From: Escherichia phage CLB_P2
Strand: one strand, 5' to 3'
DNA length: 64,000 bases
Sequence record: OL770107
The translations under genes were made by a program, and so were the position numbers. This document shows positions 3,437 through 59,886 of the stretch, in pieces. Every line of letters starts with the position of its first letter. Position 1 is the stretch's first letter. Below the pieces are notes generated by a model, which saw only the letters and a program-made list of their open reading frames with translations, was not told the origin of the DNA and did not search any database.

Positions 3437-4444
3437 TTAGAATTCGAAGATAATGTTAATTTCTTCGGTTTGGTCCATGGAACGAATAACCGGAGGACGG
3501 TTTTCCATATAAATCATTTCACCGGAGTGGCGGGAGAGATCTATAACGTCATAGTACTCTTTTTCGGCTTTAATGATCGGGTCTGATGGATGGGCTTTAG
3601 CTTCCAATGGGTTGGAAATTATTGAAAGTTGTCTAAATCCTTTATTCCCCGGCAAACTAAATTCAGGGAAATAAACTGAATCTAAGAATGCTTTAAAACG
3701 AATAGTATTGCCTTTAATACGATAAATCAAGCCATAATCGTCTTGTTGCCAAGTGAGGTTATTCTCATATCCCCAACGTTCAGGGTCTTCAGCAATTTCT
3801 TCCGGCCATGGAACTACAATATATTCATTGGTACAACGGTTGATACTTACATCAGGTGGAATCTCATAAAGATATTCCCAAAGATAGCCATCACCGGTGT
3901 CTACCATACCTTCTGTATCGCCTTGTCCTGCCGGAGCTTTAACTGAAGGGACGTTTGCGGTCCATTTACCACCAAGTTTAATACACTCGGTTTTATTATC
4001 AAGAGATAAAATAGAGCATGCTCCGGATTCAGGAACATCCACACAACGATAAACCATCCAACCTGCACCAACATCAGTACGGTTTTGCGGCTGGCTATTC
4101 GCCACTACAATTTCACCAATCTGGAATGTGAAAGGATTAGGATAAGAGGTATCGCCCCAGTCTTTGCGAGGAACAACACAATCCAACATACTCTTATAAA
4201 CCTTAACACAACCCATCATGTTTGTCCAGACGTCCTCTACGCCCTCAGAATCATCTACAGGATACGGTGGAGCAAAGCCTGGGTCGTTTTCGTTAGGAGC
4301 CCATGGTTGGGCTCTCCCGAAAGATACATACATCGTGTTCTGGTCTTCACCATCACCGATTGTTCTGTAAAAGTTGTACATCTTTTCCGTTCTAAATTTA
4401 GAAGTAACAATAGAACGATATATTACTGTTGAATTAATCATCAA
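3437..4444 (-). CDS. 8: baseplate wedge subunit gp8
   Basis: 335 aa (T4 gp8 334 aa); synteny between gp7 and gp9. Confidence 0.75.
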   Translation of the reverse strand: MMINSTVIYRSIVTSKFRTEKMYNFYRTIGDGEDQNTMYVSFGRAQPWAPNENDPGFAPPYPVDDSEGVEDVWTNMMGCVKVYKSMLDCVVPRKDWGDTSYPNPFTFQIGEIVVANSQPQNRTDVGAGWMVYRCVDVPESGACSILSLDNKTECIKLGGKWTANVPSVKAPAGQGDTEGMVDTGDGYLWEYLYEIPPDVSINRCTNEYIVVPWPEEIAEDPERWGYENNLTWQQDDYGLIYRIKGNTIRFKAFLDSVYFPEFSLPGNKGFRQLSIISNPLEAKAHPSDPIIKAEKEYYDVIDLSRHSGEMIYMENRPPVIRSMDQTEEINIIFEF

Positions 4445-7400
4445 TTTTTACCTGAGTTGGGTCTTGCGGGTCTCTAGGGTTTCCTATATCAGCTTTAAGT
4501 CTGTCATCAACTAAAGCACGCCATTTTGAAAATGTTACTGCACTTTGGTCAAATAAAGGACTATGCTTTTTAATACGTTCATGAGGTAATTGGCCTTGGA
4601 ATACAGAGAAATCATTTTCTGCGTCATAATCAGCAGGAATATCAAACGGTTCACCTGCTTTAGGTCCAACGTTATAAACCGGGAGCCCTGTTCTAGGGTC
4701 TCGTTCTATATTACCATCAAATCCGATTACAGCAACTCTATCATACCATTCGGATGGAAGACCTGAGTCCCACTTATAGTTCTTAAGTATATTAATAATG
4801 GTTTCCGTGTGCTTTAATGTCAAACCGACGTTAACAAACATAGAAAGCAACGTAATCCCTATAAAACCAAATCCTACAGGGTGGACAAATCTCAATACAT
4901 CATTACGATATCGAGAAGTAGGGAGGTTGGATTTAATAGTCATAACATAATAAGAACGGTTGCGGTTAATATAATCGATATTGTTACTTAACAATTCTTT
5001 ACCGCGTACACCCTGCACTATCATACCTTTAAATGATGTGCGTTCAGATTTAATCTCTTGACCCACTATAAAACGACCTAAAAGATTATGAATGGTTAAA
5101 CGCCATTGCAATTTACCATCTTTATAATTTCGTTCTATATAAGTAACATTACTTCTTCCTGTAGGGGTATAAATTGTTTGGCCGACAATATCTTCACTGA
5201 TGTTATCAGATTCTACAATGATATCATATTCAATAGAGTTCTTAGACTCTATATCAATTTCGACATCTTCGTTATAAAGCAATTTAAACAGGAATTTATA
5301 TGAAGCTTCGGTACCTTTTGTAGACCAGAAATCCGATTGACGAGCCTGGAAGAAACGAACCACTTCGTCGCGCTTTTCTTTAGACAGGTAGATATTACGT
5401 TTATAGATTTCGGACCACAAATATTCCCACGAGTCTTCTTCACGAGGATATTGGTTACGAATAAGATTTAATAGGTTATTATAATGAGTGCCAGAGCCAT
5501 CACTAATAAACTGAAGATAATATTCGCAGAATTTTTCAAAGTTAGAATCTTGAAGCAAATAACTATCAGGGACCATTTTAACCAATAAAGGACGCAAATC
5601 AGGGTCTTGTTCACCTGTTTCTTCTTTAGGGGTCCATGGAATTTCATGCTCTTGGTTTTGGAGCTCTGCGGTAAACATTATTTCTTTAGGCTTCCAAATT
5701 ATTCTAACTTCATCTCGAACTCGATAATCGAACTCGAAATATCCTATCAATTCACCTGATGATTTGTGAATCATTATACCTGAGGAATATTTTTTAAATC
5801 CACTGAATTCAATGTTAGGGCATGTTACAGTACAAAAGCCTTTATCCCAAATTTCGCGGATAATACGCTCTGGAGAAGAACCACTGTTTAAATCAATAAT
5901 TTTCTGATATAATGCATCGTTATAAACTACCATCGCATGATTACTTGTGGTAATCCAAGAGCGGGTTCCATCGCGTCTAGACCAACTAAAGAATGGTTCG
6001 GCATAATAAGCCATTCGGCCAGGTTTGAATTCTTTAAAATCTGATTTACTGTTAGCTCTAAAACTCATCATCAGATAATGTTTATCATGAATCCACTGCT
6101 CATCCTTAACGTATTTTACGGCAGAAGCCACGATAGGGTATTCTAAAGGCAATTCGTTGTCAACTTCCACCTCGTATTTGAAGTTACTTGAGCTAAAGAA
6201 TATTTCTTCACCGTCTGTAGACATGCTGGTATAACCATGCTCAATACGACGTCTCTCTTCTTCAGTATTACCAAATACTCTGGTCCATGTATCAGTTTCA
6301 GCATCCAACCAATAAACGCCTTTAGATTCAGAATCAACCACGTTTTCTTCTTTAGTAGGGTCCATTCTTTCTTCTTTAACTTCACCCGTAATTAAGGCAA
6401 AGGTGTTTCCTTGAATAGAGTCCAATTTATAACAAACTGCTTTAGGGTTGCCGGTTATGGTCGAATATCCACTTTCAAATATTTTTTCACCATAAGTAGG
6501 AGAACCTGGGTCGGTATCAATAGGCGCATCGGTGGTTTTTGCTTTATAAACTCTGTCTCTAGCAGCCACGTAAATAAAATCGTCCGAAGCACACATTGCC
6601 TCTGCTATAGTAGAAATAGCTAATGGTAAACGGGCATAAGAACCAAAAATTTCAATTTCAAAATCAAGGTCGATATCACTACCAATTTTAGCAAATGTCA
6701 CGTCTTGTGAGCTAAAACGTACATCATCAGCAGACCATCTGATATCACTAGATTTACGTCCGTAAAATATACGGTCATAACCTAAAACATAAGTTGTGGT
6801 GTCCGTTTGGTAATGGGCCGTACGTGAAACCGGATTACCTACTCGGTCATTAAACAAACGAATATAGTGCCAGTTTTGAGCTTTGTCATTAGATACCTTA
6901 GCAGTGTTCTGAAATCTTTCTAAAAGATAAAGTACACCACCAAGCTCCATTAAAATAGAACGATTAGGGTCCTTACATACGGCTTGAATACTTCCTTGAA
7001 TCTCATGAAAGCGGTCAGCCTTTAATACATAATTAGAAATTGAAGAAAGGTGAGAATACGATGGAGTCCAAGTAAAATCCTCTGTCATCATAGAAGCCAT
7101 AATGGCATCACTATTAAAATCCACGTAATTCTGGTTATTTTTGGTAAATTTTTCTTCAATGAATTTATCGGATAAAGTGAATTCTCGCATATGCTCGAAG
7201 GTATATGCGTTGGTAGAAAATGTCTCGAATTCTTCTGTATAAACCCATTCGGATTGTTCAAATCCTTGAGCAGCTACAGCGACACGCATTTTATAAAACG
7301 AATTAGGAGAAATAAATCTTTCTTCGAACCAGTTATTGTTCGGGGTGTAACCTAAATTTCTCCAAAATAACTTATCATCGGGTATAGATTCACCCGCATC

Positions 7401-48650: not shown

Positions 48651-49208
48651 ATGACCGAAATTAAACTGACTAAAAATAACTATGTAAATAATAAGGAGCT
48701 TCTGAAAGCCATTACCCAGTGGAAAACAGAGCTCCGAGAAAATACCGATCCTAATAAAATAGTTCGTCAGAACGATGTTATCGGCTTGGCTATTATGCTC
48801 ATTGCTGAGGGCCTTTCTAAGCGTTTCAACTTCTCCGGGTATACCCAATCCTGGAAGCAAGAAATGATTGCTGATGGAATCGAAGCTTCTATTAAAGGTC
48901 TTCACAACTTCGACGAAACAAAATACGACAACCCACATGCATATATCACTATGGCTTGTTTTAATGCCTTTGTTCAGCGTATCAAGAAAGAACGTAAAGA
49001 AATGGCAAAGAAATACAGCTACTTCGTCCATAACGTTTATGACGCTAATGACGACGACATGGTAGGTATCGCAGATGAAACTTTTATCCAGGATATTTAC
49101 GACAAAATGACTCAGTATGAAACCTCTTTAGTTAAAGCGCCAGGGTCTGATAAGAGCGCCGAATCTAAAGTTGGTGAGCTGGATTTTTTATATGGAACTC
49201 AAGATTAA
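48651..49208 (+). CDS. 55: late-transcription sigma factor gp55
   Basis: 185 aa, same length as T4 gp55; position upstream of 47/46. Confidence 0.8.
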
Positions 49209-49420: not shown

Positions 49421-49732
49421 ATGCAAAGCACCGACATTTCTCAATTGACCGAAGAGCAAATTGAAGAAGCCCAGAAGCGTTTAGAAGAGAATAATGCTAA
49501 AGAAGCCGCTTCTCAAGCTGCCAAAATTCTTAAAAAGAATGCCCGTGAAATTAAGCGTCTTAATACACATGCTCAGGGCGCTGTTCTCGAAAACAATTTC
49601 GAAGCTTACAAATATGCTATAATTAAATTACGTGGTATTTACCGTCAACCGACTACTGACGAAATCGTTAGAGTTATGTGGGAAACTACGCGTAAACAGA
49701 TTTGGGAAATTATCAATGGCGCTAGTAAATAA
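49421..49732 (+). CDS. hypothetical protein
   Basis: 103 aa helical ORF. Confidence 0.4.
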   Translation: MQSTDISQLTEEQIEEAQKRLEENNAKEAASQAAKILKKNAREIKRLNTHAQGAVLENNFEAYKYAIIKLRGIYRQPTTDEIVRVMWETTRKQIWEIINGASK

Positions 49733-49916
49733 ACCCTTTAAACGGCTTCTTATTGGAGCCGCCTTCAGACTTCGCTCATACGGTAATATTTGTATTAAGC
49801 AGTCCGAAACCGAATATAAAATGAGTGGGCAATATTCCGATGAAATTTTTCGGATTGAGCCTGTAGCCAAGGTTTGGGTGGATTCACACCAACTTAAGAA
49901 ATGGTGGCAACGATGA
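49716..49916 (+). CDS. hypothetical basic protein
   Basis: 66 aa ORF. Confidence 0.3.
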   Translation: MALVNKPFKRLLIGAAFRLRSYGNICIKQSETEYKMSGQYSDEIFRIEPVAKVWVDSHQLKKWWQR

Positions 49917-49935
49917 TAACATGGACAGGTGGCTA

Positions 49936-50027
49936 ATGAAAGACGAACATCCGGATTTTTAAGCTATGAATGACGAATACGAAAAAGTTTAAGAGGTTTT
50001 ATGAATGACGAATTCGACGGATTTTGA
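49936..50027 (+). repeat. three tandem roughly 30-bp units, each an 8-codon mini-ORF
   Basis: ATGAAAGACGAACAT..TAA, ATGAATGACGAATAC..TAA, ATGAATGACGAATTC..TGA at 49936, 49966, 50001. Confidence 0.5.
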
Positions 50028-50178
50028 TAAGATTAAATCTGACAAAAATGAGATGATACTTAAATTTGAAGCCGCTCGTATTAAAGCGGAAAAAGAAGGT
50101 ACTATTACTCATAAGAAAATCAAGTTCACGTCTAATCGCGAACCTCTGTATGGTGTATTAGTTGGTAAAGGAGCTTAG
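50005..50178 (+). CDS. small hypothetical protein (57 aa)
   Basis: ORF below track cutoff, ends in terminator hairpin. Confidence 0.3.
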   Translation: MTNSTDFDKIKSDKNEMILKFEAARIKAEKEGTITHKKIKFTSNREPLYGVLVGKGA

Positions 50179-50191
50179 GCTCCTTTTTTTG
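50168..50191 (+). terminator. rho-independent terminator
   Basis: Hairpin ggagc-ttag-gctcc followed by TTTTTTT. Confidence 0.65.
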
Positions 50192-50379: not shown

Positions 50380-51398
50380 AAATATTAAACACAGGTGACT
50401 GGCACCTTGGAGTTAAGGCCGATGATGTATGGGTACAGAATATCCAACGTCAAGGTATCCAAGACGCTATCAATTATTCTAAAGCAAATGGCATTACTGT
50501 ATGGATTCAATACGGTGATATCTTTGACGTTCGTAAAGCAATTACCCATAAGTGTATGGAATTCGCTCGCGAAATCTCTGATTTGCTTAAAGCTAACGGC
50601 ATTACCATGTATACCGTTGTTGGTAATCATGATATGCACTACAAAAATACCTTGACTCCTAACGCTGCTTCTGAAGTTCTCGGCAAATACGACCATATCA
50701 AGGTTATTGAAAAACCTACTACGGTTAACTTTGATGGCACCGAAATTGATTTGATTCCATGGATGTGTGAAGAAAACACAACTGATATCATGGACCATAT
50801 CAAAAATACAACGGCAGATTTCTGTATTGGCCATTGGGAATTAAATGGTTTCTATTTCTATAAAGGAATGAAATCTCATGGTTTAGAACCTGATTTCCTT
50901 AAAAAGTATAAGCAAGTTTGGTCAGGCCACTTCCACACTATTTCTGATGCAGCAAACGTTAAGTACATTGGTACTCCATGGACCCTTACTGCAGGTGATG
51001 AGAACGACCCTCGTGGTTTCTGGATTTTCGATACCGAAACTCATAAAATGGATTTCATCATTAATGAAACCTGTTGGCATCGTAAGATTCATTATCCTAA
51101 CGCGACTATCGATTACAAAGATTTTACAAATATCGCAGTTCGTGTTATAGTCGATAAAATTGATGACGGCCTTACTAAGTTCGAATCAGAGCTTGAAAAG
51201 GTTGTTCACTCTTTACGTATTGTGTCTAAGGTAGATAATAGTGTTGATACCGATGATTCTGAAGAGGAAGACGAAGTTAAATCCCTCTTGGATATGATGT
51301 ATGATTATATCGATGCCCTGCCTGATGGCCACACTGAAGCCGATGTTAAGGCCCTCAAAACTATGGCTGCACAACTTTATAATGAGGTTACACGATGA
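50376..51398 (+). CDS. 47: recombination endonuclease subunit gp47 (Mre11-like)
   Basis: 340 aa; N-terminal MKILNTGDWHLG phosphoesterase motif; GNHD motif. Confidence 0.85.
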   Translation: MKILNTGDWHLGVKADDVWVQNIQRQGIQDAINYSKANGITVWIQYGDIFDVRKAITHKCMEFAREISDLLKANGITMYTVVGNHDMHYKNTLTPNAASEVLGKYDHIKVIEKPTTVNFDGTEIDLIPWMCEENTTDIMDHIKNTTADFCIGHWELNGFYFYKGMKSHGLEPDFLKKYKQVWSGHFHTISDAANVKYIGTPWTLTAGDENDPRGFWIFDTETHKMDFIINETCWHRKIHYPNATIDYKDFTNIAVRVIVDKIDDGLTKFESELEKVVHSLRIVSKVDNSVDTDDSEEEDEVKSLLDMMYDYIDALPDGHTEADVKALKTMAAQLYNEVTR

Positions 51399-51658
51399 CT
51401 TTAGATGAATTCAAAAAATCAGGACTTGAACTGGAACACGACTGTATAGTTATTGATGATGATGGTCAACCTAGTACAATTAAGTTCTGGTTTGAAGCTG
51501 TGAGCAATCGTGATACCGACGAGCTTATTAAAGTTTATGTTGCTACCGATTGGGCTGTGGAATTTAGCTTTAATGTAATGGTAGACGATACTCCAGAAAC
51601 ATTAATTCATATGGCTGAATCATGCATCAAGGATGCTTATAATGATGAAAATGTATAA
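51395..51658 (+). CDS. hypothetical protein (46.1-like position)
   Basis: 87 aa ORF between 47 and 46. Confidence 0.4.
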   Translation: MTLDEFKKSGLELEHDCIVIDDDGQPSTIKFWFEAVSNRDTDELIKVYVATDWAVEFSFNVMVDDTPETLIHMAESCIKDAYNDENV

Positions 51659-57174: not shown

Positions 57175-59886
57175 ATGCAAGAATTCTATTTGACAGTCGA
57201 ACAAATCGGTGATAATATTCTCGAACGTTACATCGATAAAAATGGTAACGAACGTAGTCGTGAAGTTCCTTACAAGCCTACAATGTTTATGCATGCTAAC
57301 CCAGAGCAAGCCGTAAAATATATTGACATCTACGGTAAGGGCTGTGTTAAGAAAGAATTCAATTCAATGCGCGATGCTTCTCAGTGGATGAAGCGCATGG
57401 ACGATATGGGTCTCGAAGCCCTTGGTATGGATGACTATAAATTAGCCTATTTGTCTGATACCTATCGTAAAGAAATCAAGTATGATTCTTCTAAGATTCG
57501 TATTGCTAACTTCGACATCGAGGTAACATCTCCTGATGGATTCCCTGAACCTGCCCAGGCTAAACATCCTATCGATGCCATTACTCACTACGACTCGATT
57601 GATGATAAATTCTATGTATTCGACCTTTTAGTTTCACCTTATGGTACGGTCGAAGAGTGGTCGATTAAAATCGCTGAGAAACTCCAAGACGAAGGTGGTG
57701 ACGAAGTTCCACAGGAAATCATTGACAAAATCGTTTATCTTCCGTTTAATTCTGAAGAAGAAATGATGCTTGAGTATCTTAATTTCTGGCAACAGAAAAC
57801 TCCTGTGATTTTGACTGGATGGAACGTTGAATCATTTGACGTGCCATACGTTTATAACCGTCTGAAAAATCTGTTTGGTGAGAACACTGCTAAGCGATTA
57901 AGCCCGCATCGTAAGACTCGTGTTAAAGTTATCGAGAACATGTACGGCGCTCGCGAAATTATTACACTGTTCGGTATCTCTGTTCTGGATTATATCGACC
58001 TTTATAAAAAATTCAGCTTTACCAACCAGCCTTCTTATTCTCTGGATTATGTTTCTGAATATGAATTGAAAGTAGGTAAGTTGAAATATGATGGCCCTAT
58101 CTCCAAGTTACGTGAGACGAACCACCAACGATATATTTCCTATAACATTATCGACGTATATCGTGTTGTGCAGATTGATATGAAACGCCAGTTCATTCTT
58201 CTTAGTCTGGACATGGGTTACTATGCCAAGATGCAGATTCAGTCGGTGTTCAGTCCAATTAAGACTTGGGACGCCATTATTTTTAATAGCCTTAAAGAAC
58301 AGGGTAAAGTTATTCCTCAGGCCAAATCGCATGCGGTTCAACCTTATCCGGGTGCTTTCGTTAAGGAACCTATTCCTAACGCGTACAAATATGTAATGAG
58401 TTTCGACCTTACATCTCTGTACCCGAGTATCATTCGACAAGTGAATATAAGCCCAGAGACCATCGCAGGCACATTCGCCAACGCACCGATACATGAATAT
58501 ATTGCCGGAACTGCTCCGCGTCCTAGCGACACCTACAGTTGCTCTCCTAACGGCATGATGTACTATAAAGACCGTGATGGTGTGATTCCTACAGAAATCA
58601 CGAAGGTGTTCTTACAACGTAAAGAACATAAAGGTTATATGCTTGCAGCTCAACGTAATGGTGAGTTAATTAAAGAAGCATTAGAAAATCCTAATCTGTC
58701 TGTTGATAGTCCATTGGATGTTGATTATCGTTTCGACTTCTCTGACGAAGTCAAAGCCCAGATTAAAAAATTGTCAGCATCTTCTTTAAAAGAAATGTTG
58801 TTCAAAGCCGAACGTACTGAAGTCGCAGGTATGACTGCTCAGATTAACCGTAAATTGCTTATCAACTCCCTTTATGGTGCACTTGGTAACGTATGGTTCC
58901 GTTACTATGACCTCAGGAACGCAACTGCAATAACATTGTTTGGTCAAATGGCCCTCCAATGGATTGAACGTAAGGTTAACGAATATCTGAATGGCGTATG
59001 TAAGACCGAAAACCAGAAGTTCGTGCTTTATGGTGATACTGACTCCATTTATGTTAAGGCTGATGCAATTATCAATAAAGTAGGCGAAGACAAATTCCGT
59101 GATACCAACCACTGGGTTGACTTCTTAGATAAATTTGCACGTGAACGTATGGAACCAGCTATTGATGCAGGCTTCCGTGAGATGTGTGAATACATGAACA
59201 ATAAACAGCACTTGATGTTCATGGACCGAGAAGCTATCGCTGGTCCTCCACTTGGTTCTAAAGGTCTTGGTGGATTCTGGACAGGCAAGAAACGTTATGC
59301 ACTGAACGTTTGGGACATGGAAGGTACTCGTTATGCCGAACCACACTTGAAAATCATGGGTCTCGAAACCCAGAAATCAAGTACACCTAAAGCGGTTCAG
59401 AAAGCTCTGAAAGAATGTATCCGTCGTATGCTTCAAGAAGGCGAGGCCTCTTTGCAAGAATATTTCAAACAGTTTAATAAGGAATTTAACGAACTAGACT
59501 ATGTAAGCATTGCTGCAGTATCCAGTGCTAACAACATCGAGAAATATAATGAAGGCGGTTTCCCTGGTTCTAAATGTCCGTACCACATCAAAGGTTGCTT
59601 AGCTTACATGCGTGCTTCTGCTGGTGATTTGACTATGCCTCGTATCGTTGATGGTGAAAAGGTATATGTACTACCACTTAAAGAAGGCAACCCGTTCGGT
59701 GAAGCTTGTATGGCATGGCCGTCAGGTATTGAACTTCCGATTCAGATTCGTGACCAAGTCCTCCGTTGGATGGACTACAACGTATTGTTCCAAAAGACCT
59801 TTATCAAACCTCTGACCGGTTTTACTGAGTCTGCTAAAATTGACTACGAGAAAAAAGCAACATTATTTGACATGTTCGACTTTTAA
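57175..59886 (+). CDS. 43: DNA polymerase gp43 (family B)
   Basis: 903 aa from MQEFY; exonuclease motifs (FDIE, YNIIDV), polymerase motifs SLYPSII, KILINSLYGALG, YGDTDS match T4 gp43. Confidence 0.9.
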   Translation: MQEFYLTVEQIGDNILERYIDKNGNERSREVPYKPTMFMHANPEQAVKYIDIYGKGCVKKEFNSMRDASQWMKRMDDMGLEALGMDDYKLAYLSDTYRKEIKYDSSKIRIANFDIEVTSPDGFPEPAQAKHPIDAITHYDSIDDKFYVFDLLVSPYGTVEEWSIKIAEKLQDEGGDEVPQEIIDKIVYLPFNSEEEMMLEYLNFWQQKTPVILTGWNVESFDVPYVYNRLKNLFGENTAKRLSPHRKTRVKVIENMYGAREIITLFGISVLDYIDLYKKFSFTNQPSYSLDYVSEYELKVGKLKYDGPISKLRETNHQRYISYNIIDVYRVVQIDMKRQFILLSLDMGYYAKMQIQSVFSPIKTWDAIIFNSLKEQGKVIPQAKSHAVQPYPGAFVKEPIPNAYKYVMSFDLTSLYPSIIRQVNISPETIAGTFANAPIHEYIAGTAPRPSDTYSCSPNGMMYYKDRDGVIPTEITKVFLQRKEHKGYMLAAQRNGELIKEALENPNLSVDSPLDVDYRFDFSDEVKAQIKKLSASSLKEMLFKAERTEVAGMTAQINRKLLINSLYGALGNVWFRYYDLRNATAITLFGQMALQWIERKVNEYLNGVCKTENQKFVLYGDTDSIYVKADAIINKVGEDKFRDTNHWVDFLDKFARERMEPAIDAGFREMCEYMNNKQHLMFMDREAIAGPPLGSKGLGGFWTGKKRYALNVWDMEGTRYAEPHLKIMGLETQKSSTPKAVQKALKECIRRMLQEGEASLQEYFKQFNKEFNELDYVSIAAVSSANNIEKYNEGGFPGSKCPYHIKGCLAYMRASAGDLTMPRIVDGEKVYVLPLKEGNPFGEACMAWPSGIELPIQIRDQVLRWMDYNVLFQKTFIKPLTGFTESAKIDYEKKATLFDMFDF

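Follow-up and report, generated by a model that had tools for sequence, protein, structure and literature searches.

The mini-ORF array between a-gt.3 and a-gt.2

The 64,000-nucleotide (nt) stretch of Escherichia phage CLB_P2 analyzed in this study in its full length (sequence record OL770107; hereafter the window) represents a Dhakavirus, a JS98-like phage with about 95% identity to JS98, and contains at positions 49936-50027 three consecutive open reading frames (ORFs) of only eight codons each. These mini-ORFs, referred to as units 1 to 3, are the subject of this report. Using gene names carried over from the JS98 annotation via a 95.6% identical alignment, the array was found to fill the 88-nt spacer between a-gt.3 (49716-49916) and a-gt.2 (50005-50178), both on the + strand, with gene 55 (48651-49208) upstream and 47.1/47 downstream in + strand order. 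An earlier reading of this DNA from its letters alone (the sequence-only reading) had placed the array in the 55-47 interval where T4 carries a-gt; the interval is correct and can be narrowed to the a-gt.3/a-gt.2 spacer, but the a-gt gene itself is absent from the 55-47 interval of the window.

The upstream cistron is the a-gt.3 homologue of 66 amino acids (aa), recognized by transfer from JS98, by phrog_1648 and as an ORF. Its stop codon TGA lies at 49914-49916, and 4 nt further an ATG at 49921 opens an alternative ORF of 13 codons on the + strand (49921-49962; MDRWLMKDEHPDF) that includes unit 1 and is homologous to the pair MVGFGEG and MNDEHPDF of the loci L184 and L186 (mini-ORF peptides and module ends are written here up to their stop codon). 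The ATG of unit 1, MKDEHPDF (49936-49962, +; DEHPDF module), is preceded at a distance of 3 nt by a Shine-Dalgarno (SD)-like AGGTGG (49927-49932, +). Unit 2, MNDEYEKV (49966-49992, +; DEYE[KG]V module), is probably reached by reinitiation, because it carries no SD of its own and its ATG lies 3 nt past the unit-1 stop. The SD sequence AAGAGG (49991-49996, +) overlaps the unit-2 stop and is common to two starts, lying 4 nt ahead of ATG 50001 and 8 nt ahead of ATG 50005. The first of these opens unit 3, MNDEFDGF (50001-50027, +; DEFDGF module), which ends in UUU UGA U, and the second, situated within unit 3, is the annotated start of the a-gt.2 homologue (57 aa, DUF5486), which is read in the +1 frame relative to unit 3. 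An intrinsic terminator at 50167-50186 on the + strand closes the transcription unit from gene 55 to a-gt.2. The translations of the three intervals and the SD of unit 3 agree with those given in the sequence-only reading; it did not notice that unit 3 overlaps the start of a-gt.2, that the units are three different modules, or how widely, as described below, these modules are distributed.

The heads of the three units, ATGAAAGACGAA, ATGAATGACGAA and ATGAATGACGAA, are spaced 30 and 35 nt apart and share the 12-nt sequence ATGAA(A/T)GACGAA. This head is the only part common to all three units. Identity between units 2 and 3 is 74% over 35 nt, with unit 1 diverging further, and the peptides are three distinct modules and not copies of one repeat. 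No tandem repeat was detected in the array by TRF at a score of 30 or higher, and a classical tandem repeat of variable number, with at least about 70% identity over the whole unit, was ruled out by this result and by the restriction of the common sequence to the head. The search of the window for ATGAAWGACGAA with up to one mismatch gave four copies, against 1.16 expected per window, and three of the four are at the array; the exact 12-nt head is confined to the array, the single extra copy carrying one mismatch. Three ATG-initiated ORFs of eight codons within 100 nt occur once in the window, and also in 24 of 300 Markov simulations (about 8%). The tiling of ORFs is thus by itself weakly unusual, and the case rests on conservation in other phages. 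In a six-frame scan of the window, module motifs were found only at the three units. We detected no promoter-like site in the spacer, no terminator-like hairpin in the array before 50167, no RNA fold in the region beyond shuffled controls (z = -0.34) and no relevant match to the Rfam 15 covariance models in the window or related loci.

Selection on the peptides in T4-like phages

T4-like loci were gathered via the flanking genes only, with the 1-kb region as BLAST query, a-gt.2 as tblastn query and a profile of a-gt.3, and this sample is therefore unbiased towards the mini-ORFs. Among these loci the DEHPDF core exists in 10 nucleotide versions, with seven synonymous and no non-synonymous minor alleles, the DEFDGF core in six versions (six and none) and the DEYEKV core in two versions (one and none). 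With the single non-synonymous case, DEHPNF in L194, the total is 14 synonymous versus 1 non-synonymous, where by our own calculation approximately 15% of random single-base changes in the core codons would be synonymous. Synonymous codons encode the same MKDEHPDF peptide in other T4-like loci, among them those of Tequatrovirus, the Mosigvirus type and Gaprivervirus, the Tequatrovirus version differing from the window by four synonymous substitutions, and mini-ORF 3 is kept, with synonymous changes only, in every Dhakavirus and Gaprivervirus locus sampled. Conservation of the repeat and of its reading frame in related phages, the lack of which would have spoken against the sequence-only reading, was clearly found.

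The third codon positions of the mini-ORF are the second positions of the a-gt.2 frame, and its synonymous changes therefore alter the a-gt.2 frame. Because the N-terminus of a-gt.2 is variable (MTNSTDF, MTNSMDF, MTSSTDF, MNIQTSE, MNTQTSE and MTNIPTSE) and the mini-peptide is constant, it is the unannotated frame, as judged from this comparison, that is conserved where 'a-gt.2' begins. The comparative evidence shows that selection acts on the amino-acid sequence, and not on the DNA, an RNA fold or the overlapping a-gt.2 frame, and that the three units are real, selected coding micro-cistrons.

The same substitutions bear on the alternative that the units are a DNA or RNA element, such as a recombination linker, a protein-binding site or a structured RNA, with the peptides being incidental. 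Such an element could be suspected from the location of units at module boundaries of mosaic regions, from the 12-nt head as a direct repeat and from a palindrome, GTGACATGTCAC, near some prophage copies. The variation is, however, concentrated at synonymous third positions, with all four CCN and all four GGN codons in use, which is the opposite of the expectation for a sequence-specific nucleic-acid element; moreover, where residues do change, D is exchanged for E and F for Y, which is conservative for the protein, and neither a fold beyond shuffles nor an Rfam match supports a structured RNA. We consider this alternative largely refuted and its chance of being correct minimal. A similarity of ATGAATGACGAA to a downstream box was also considered, and is contradicted by the codon-level variation.

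A downstream start in the +1 frame is located at +4 or +7 inside the mini-ORF in Tequatro-, Mosig-, Dhaka- and Gapriverviruses, the a-gt.2 start being overlapped in this frame in the JK45 type too, and likewise in the phiEco32-like L031 and in L098 and L213-216; in the last two cases the overlap persists even where the downstream protein is a Zn-ribbon joined to the a-gt.2 core. T4 itself (L238 371-562, and L239) carries a 1-nt deletion, CATCC-GACTTC (CATCC-GACTTCTGA), relative to 15 other Tequatroviruses (CAYCCAGACTTCTGA), as judged against L017, L187-L194 and L240-L242. The deletion fuses the mini-ORF frame to a-gt.2, giving a 63-aa ORF that begins MVATVKDEHPTSEIDYNK.. (annotated MVATVKDEHPTSEIDY..), and the former a-gt.2 ATG opens in T4 a 7-codon ORF, MNIRLLK.

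Such a joining of frames is what would be expected if the fused product were functional, that is, if the mini-ORF were the true N-terminus of a-gt.2 and ribosomes from ATG 50001 slipped by programmed +1 frameshifting on UUU_UGA, with tRNA-Phe re-pairing on UUU, to produce MNDEFDGF-DKIKSD... The window sequence GGA UUU UGA U, whose +1 frame is open into the conserved a-gt.2 core, and the GGU UUU UGA A of L031 are compatible with slippage, and over the overlap it is the mini-ORF frame that is conserved. Most lineages, however, carry the non-slippery UUC_UGA or UUC_UAA (15 Tequatroviruses, the JK45 type, L213-216), the downstream gene keeps its own +1-frame ATG in every lineage, and there are identical mini-ORFs after which no frame continues into a gene (in phiEco32, L057, and in prophage units before terminators). 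The prfB frameshift site has an SD-like stimulator 3 nt upstream, and the absence of such a stimulator here also counts against frameshifting, which we regard as very unlikely.

In close relatives of the window the array gains and loses whole units. The same three units are present in JS98, UP19, MN04 and MN01, while WG01 is without exactly 30 nt between two GACGAA heads, so that the head of unit 1 is joined to the tail of unit 2, and VR5 and DK-13 are without unit 2, the junction falling on a TTTAAG repeat. In RZ the first ORF is extended (MNIGCFEDEHPDF) and has its start on the a-gt.3 stop, and in UPEC07 MNDEYEKV is followed by a 39-aa ORF with the unit-1 tail (..FQDEHPDF) and then by MNDEFDGF. 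The more distant L010, L012, L184 and L186 carry four mini-ORFs, MVGFGEG, MNDEHPDF, (TTG)NDEYEKV and MNDEFDGF, with a change of AAA to AAG in the (TTG)NDEYEKV of L184 and L186. Judging from these junctions, the copy number of the array changes by deletion or duplication of whole units at 6-nt direct repeats, and since unit 1 or unit 2 is absent in some relatives, single units are dispensable.

The proposal in the sequence-only reading that the array is a remnant of repeated recombination is borne out in so far as the indels of WG01, VR5 and DK-13 explain the change of the array; it does not account for the persistence of the units, for which recombination is insufficient because within-unit variation is almost purely synonymous. 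A further alternative would make the units functionless scars, left by decay of a phrog_6828-like gene or by illegitimate recombination at GACGAA and TTTAAG microhomologies, and persisting through recency or through the unit-3 overlap with a-gt.2. Besides the whole-unit indels at 6-nt direct repeats, it could draw on the longer remnant of RZ, on the 39-aa ORF of UPEC07 with the same tail, on the resemblance of MREIDLGIF and MHDEHPDF of JK45 to the two ends of a 26-aa ORF in L034, and on the harmless fusion of frames in T4. Against it stand the almost exclusively synonymous within-clade variation after fragmentation, the retention of start, stop and peptide core across genera and unrelated phages, and the number of mini-ORFs, which far exceeds that of intact longer versions. 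T4-type genomes shed useless DNA quickly, which also argues against scars, and we hold this explanation to be improbable.

The a-gt.2 core itself is a shuffled module (L092 10452-10745; L098, reverse complement (rc), 4344-4690; L019/L205; L208). RB43-like phages and L098 have it joined to a Zn-ribbon at the N-terminus (C..C..GPKRS.FC..C), and Klebsiella phages to a prohead-protease-like N-terminal fragment, the latter fusion explaining the odd 'head maturation protease' annotations of a-gt.2. In L208 the prohead-protease-like fragment bears the tail ..AEDVDFFDERPDL in place of the a-gt.2 core.

The modules in unrelated phages and prophages

IMG/VR was scanned with degenerate patterns for core plus stop codon, using as control the reversed peptide FGDFED plus stop with the same codon set. 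The DEFDGF pattern was found in at least 120 loci, DEHPDF in 39 and the control in 20. Among the matches listed, 80 of 83 distinct DEFDGF contexts are in open frames of up to 45 aa and none ends an ORF of 100 aa or more; for DEHPDF, 29 of 39 contexts are in such short frames and three end ORFs of at least 100 aa. In the control only 2 of 16 are in short frames and 12 of 16 end long ORFs. A narrowed version of the core pattern without the stop gave many chance internal matches in long ORFs. Strong SD sites are common at the module ORFs, which take the 8-aa form M[HNKYFLRT]DEFDGF (MHDEFDGF in 47 loci among the matches listed), the forms MKK[FWLMV][FY]DEFDGF and MI[RM][NK]FR[FY]SDEHPDF, a 14-aa form M[FKP]DEFDGFDEHPDF and a 39-aa form MK[DH]EFDGFIGYGEGIRQ..DVD.FVGFGEGI.SDEHPDF, the last being phrog_6828 (E = 6e-23; L030/L051).

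The phrog_6828 profile matches relatives of 39, 30 and 24 aa (E = 6e-23 to 2e-6), and the 8-aa units can be linked to this family, tentatively, by the shared modules and by protein P0001, a single chain with all three modules of the window (MKDEFDGFIGYGEGIRQAEDVFDEHPDFIKSDEYEGV) that ends in DEYEGV. P0001 was the only protein matched by an artificial query of three 14-mers, because gene callers skip such ORFs; when genomes were scanned for the complete 14-mer, a single one, from Providencia, was matched, indicating that the combined 14-mer form is narrow in distribution. The modules themselves are carried by phiEco32 (L057), T5-like contigs, RB43-like T4 relatives, and Proteus and Providencia prophages, in which they lie downstream of the Q antiterminator and its terminator. 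In addition, one E. coli prophage type has MHDEFDGF and a terminator, unannotated there, just 5' of the small terminase gene; among 5426 complete E. coli genomes, 503 (about 9%) carry this type. No common neighboring gene was found across the module contexts. The comparisons show that the units of the window belong to a widespread unannotated phage family, defined by a six-residue acidic-aromatic core directly before the stop codon.

A strictly defined terminator hairpin that starts no more than 30 nt past the stop was detected in 37 of the 81 distinct DEFDGF contexts listed, with modes at 2-5 and 16-24 nt; the background for ORFs of at least 80 aa from these loci is 6.6%, and the control pattern gave 1 of 15. 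For a second unbiased sample, a profile of DUF4760, a membrane protein of prophages, was used to collect loci (L243-L295) with protein identities as low as 33%. In 33 of 35 distinct DUF4760 upstream regions, a strong SD, an ORF of 10-15 aa ending in [DE]E[FY][DE]GF, an intrinsic terminator and the gene follow one another, the leader lying in the upstream stretch of about 170 nt (for instance L273 297-403). The terminator stem varies by compensatory substitutions, and DUF4760 starts 15-60 nt past the terminator, which leaves too little space for a promoter. Conservation of these leaders, such as MRKMFDEFDGF, MKKWFDEFDGF, MNLYEEFDGF, MRINEEFDGF, ..ANEEYEGF and ..AREEYEGF, is limited to the last six residues, and the replacements there are conservative (D/E, F/Y), which points to peptide chemistry and not to the sensing of one tRNA. 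The arrangement looks like a leader-peptide attenuator layout, apparently undescribed; DUF4760 is not in PADLOC, has no NCBIfam name and found no relevant mention in the literature. In L273, isrK and C4 antisense RNAs were noted just 3' of the DUF4760 gene.

An attenuator sensing amino acids in the manner of trpL, pheL or hisL was tried and rejected: there is no run of regulatory codons, no convincing antiterminator helix was found in the DUF4760 prophage loci, and the interchange of F with Y and of D with E among homologues implies that no single tRNA is sensed.

Quite different is the possibility that the modules act in trans as free docking or decoy peptides, with acidic-aromatic ...D-x-F-COOH ends that bind a pocket of a host or phage protein. 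They would then compete with or mimic the tips of SSB, of T4 clamp partners or of RecT-type proteins, and phrog_6828-type proteins and the module tails would be multivalent or tethered versions. This possibility explains better than a cis-acting leader the tandem modules in proteins of 14-40 aa (MFDEFDGFDEHPDF, MKDEFDGFIGYGEGIRQ..DEHPDF and P0001, all covered by phrog_6828) and the C-terminal tails on a T5-like phrog_4499 fusion, on L208 and on a RecT protein with the C-terminus ..RFDEHPDF. Among the 120 best matches to this RecT protein, 119 end in xP[DNTSE]F-COOH after a Pro/Ala-rich linker, so that the PxF tip is a conserved feature of this clade of recombination proteins, and by its sequence the end looks like an SSB-tip-like docking motif. 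The stand-alone units of SD, ORF and terminator, furthermore, resemble dedicated mini-genes, and the lack of a shared neighboring gene across contexts is in line with a role in trans. The acidic tip of E. coli SSB recruits at least 17 partners (PMC7145534), which adds to the plausibility of such docking.

The likeness to DDDIPF is nevertheless loose, with Pro at -3 and not at -2 when the C-terminal Phe is -1, and the RecT match may be one of the approximately 10-20 chance matches expected from the control. The strict order of SD, leader, terminator and gene 5' of DUF4760 is more naturally cis-regulatory, and the absence of any relative of P0001 in the PDB (as also of a-gt.2) does not help a role in trans. 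Free peptides of eight residues with a function in trans in the cytoplasm are, to our knowledge, nearly unprecedented and would be quickly degraded. Altogether, we see action in trans as the main rival of a role in cis, possible but less likely than not.

Within the window, gp43 (57175-59886) has the C-terminus ..KKATLFDMFDF, whose end ..TLFDMFDF matches EFDGF of mini-ORF 3 in F-D-x-F spacing, a further point in favor of docking; the C-terminal ends of gp43 and gp55 are the clamp-binding tails. An 87-aa ORF at 51395-51658, directly 3' of gene 47 and overlapping its stop, has the acidic end ..KDAYNDENV. The RecT clade (the 388-aa ORF of L046 ending at 2575, and P0002-P0121) derives mostly from Clostridia/Oscillospiraceae metagenomes.

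Several further module contexts were recorded. T5-like contigs of 108-121 kb (L298, L326, L332, L348 and others) encode a phrog_4499+phrog_6828 fusion of about 105 aa, in which a basic phrog_4499 part with the motif PCICSCWMCGNPRK is followed by the phrog_6828 tail ..NDEFDGFVGFGEGISSGCFEDERPDL, with an intrinsic terminator about 10 nt on. The palindrome GTGACATGTCAC, 12 bp in length, lies directly before or after the MHDEFDGF and MKDEFDGF mini-ORFs that flank the terminase operon of E. coli prophages (L063, rc about 1165-1230; L087, 2730-2790 and rc 5975-6022; L074; L088), and in L087 two mini-ORFs converge on terS-terL from either side. In L011 (rc 1767-1870), a 163-kb phage, MILDEFDGF and MPCVLDEFEGFDEHPDF stand back to back before a hairpin; one neighboring gene has the end ..KKKKDDKV and the other encodes a primase-like Zn-finger protein, a replication context unlike the a-gt locus. 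Module copies are also found in or next to phage tRNA clusters (L043 9408-9452, L049 about 230-404, L029/L044), and in L049 the overlapping mini-cistrons ..GYGEGIRSEEDWGLGEENWDV and MFDEFDGFVGWGEGIRSAEDVDFFDEHPDF precede the tRNA array; a link to tRNAs was rejected, since the codon content fits no tRNA set and most copies are away from tRNAs. Signaling of the arbitrium type (AimP) was likewise set aside, the 8-aa ORFs being without signal peptide, AimR receptor or conserved neighbor.

A nascent-peptide model and comparison with known systems

On balance we favor, tentatively and at somewhat less than an even chance, the model that the conserved C-terminal hexapeptide acts in cis as a nascent peptide and gates the expression of what lies downstream, which in the window would be a-gt.2. 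The preference is based on the leader architecture of DUF4760, the association with terminators, the conserved start overlap and the conservation of the last six residues only. Functional leaders of 5-25 codons are well known, and as in these, the six-residue core immediately before the stop is conserved here in ORFs that overlap the a-gt.2 start or lie upstream of DUF4760. The two suggestions of the sequence-only reading, a regulatory leader and a source of small peptides, both remain viable in light of the conservation of frame and peptide across genera and unrelated phages. The leader suggestion gains from layouts of the leader-peptide type, namely the a-gt.2 start overlap and the prophage order of SD, mini-ORF, terminator and gene.

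According to the nascent-peptide model, a single transcript would run from gene 55 to the terminator after a-gt.2 with the units inside. Ribosomes leaving a-gt.3 would restart 4 nt on at ATG 49921, or at ATG 49936 behind AGGTGG, terminate after DEHPDF (stop 49960-49962) and restart 3 nt later at the unit-2 ATG 49966. After termination on the unit-2 UAA (49990-49992), which overlaps AAGAGG, they would face a choice between ATG 50001 and ATG 50005. At the stop of mini-ORF 3, about 20 nt inside a-gt.2, a terminating ribosome would cover the a-gt.2 start, and the mini-ORFs could therefore gate the supply of ribosomes to a-gt.2, with the hexapeptide slowing release or inducing reinitiation and so altering the behavior of the ribosome at the stop codon. 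In prophages, the module together with an intrinsic terminator would form an attenuator-like leader. Intrinsic destabilization of the ribosome as in MgtL was set aside as a separate mechanism and kept as a sub-variant of the cis model, three acidic residues of eight being an atypical trigger.

Several observations weigh against this model. The core resembles no characterized arrest motif, and a hairpin or terminator is absent after the mini-ORFs in the window, so that the attenuator layout of prophages is not directly transferable to this locus. Unit 1 or unit 2 is missing from some relatives, and T4, in which the mini-ORF stop is lost, is viable. DEFDGF also stands at the start of the 14- and 39-aa ORFs, DEHPDF is internal in L213-216, and modules form the tails of longer proteins such as the T5-like phrog_4499+phrog_6828 fusion; modules away from stop codons or on long proteins fit a peptide that works as part of a protein.

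Whichever mechanism applies, DEFDGF, DEHPDF and DEYE[KG]V could represent an unrecognized class of genes of 8-15 codons, encoding either nascent-chain sensors or free mimics of docking tips, a proposal we put forward with reserve as conceivable rather than likely. The class spans T4-like, T5-like, phiEco32-like, lambdoid and other enterobacterial phages and prophages. As sensors, the peptides may couple the behavior of the ribosome at the stop to terminator read-through and downstream initiation; as mimics, free copies of a docking tip may rewire host replication or recombination hubs. In either case they would be, if the proposal is true, among the shortest conserved functional phage genes known and unseen by current annotation.

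The library searched gave no relevant mention of the peptide strings, of a-gt.2, a-gt.3 or DUF5486, or of ribosome profiling of T4 small ORFs. The Enterobacteriaceae ismORF study covers 15-70 codons (PMC11188072). With a lower bound of about 15 codons, gene finders and catalogues of small ORFs cannot see genes of eight codons. Given this lower limit of the surveys and the lack of mention in the library searched, we class the finding, provisionally, as a conserved regulatory micro-ORF, with a new class of ultra-short phage gene as the realistic alternative.

For T4-type phages, the view of the region around the a-gt.2 start is herewith corrected, in that the conserved frame differs from the annotated one. 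More generally, a concrete family with strong comparative evidence of peptide-level selection is now at hand in T4 relatives, phiEco32, T5-like phages and hundreds of E. coli prophages, where the modules are placed at positions controlling late operons, terminase genes and a prophage accessory (moron-like) gene. The question whether ultra-short peptides serve as phage regulators or effectors thus becomes testable by simple genetics.

Among the closest known systems is phrog_6828, a 40-aa family of unknown function with the same tandem modules DEFDGF ... G[FYW]GEGI ... DVDFF ... DEHPDF; the units of the window differ in being single 8-codon modules in separate cistrons, too short for gene finders or the profile. 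The likeness to SSB-Ct (..DFDDDIPF) and to the clamp-binding tail of the T4-type polymerase, i.e. acidic residues followed by an aromatic residue with a free C-terminus, is a loose one. Those tips are tethered by linkers to large proteins, whereas the modules here are free or on ORFs of 10-40 aa, and the core has Pro at -3 instead of -2 and Gly in place of Met or Leu. The [IL]-P-F-COOH end of SSB-Ct is not found in DEHPDF, DEFDGF or DEYEKV, which are acidic with terminal F or V and without penultimate Pro.

The bar minigenes of lambda are likewise phage ORFs of a few codons with an SD, acting through the translation machinery as proposed here. They have only 2-3 codons, however, and work by peptidyl-tRNA drop-off that affects a specific tRNA, their peptide not being under selection; the ORFs of the present family differ from them by having 8-15 codons and a conserved peptide core. 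With prfB the window shares a slippery codon directly before an in-frame UGA (UUU UGA U) and a +1 frame that opens into a real gene, but unlike in prfB the slippery codon is unconserved among relatives, no upstream SD stimulator exists, and the downstream gene keeps its own ATG.

Comparison was finally made with leader and arrest peptides, i.e. TnaC, MgtL, the cat-86 and cmlA leaders and MAGDIS of the eukaryotic AMD1 upstream ORF. The units differ from all of these by the absence of sequence similarity, of a regulatory-codon run and of any alternative antiterminator helix that we could find; furthermore, their target in the window would be the translation of a-gt.2 and not a terminator, and the modules also occur within or at the end of longer proteins. 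In common with leader and arrest peptides, they are very short, SD-bearing ORFs upstream of or overlapping a gene, with conserved residues before the stop, and in prophages an intrinsic terminator lies between leader and gene; in addition, the acidic and Pro content of DEHPD recalls the EPDP motif of MgtL.

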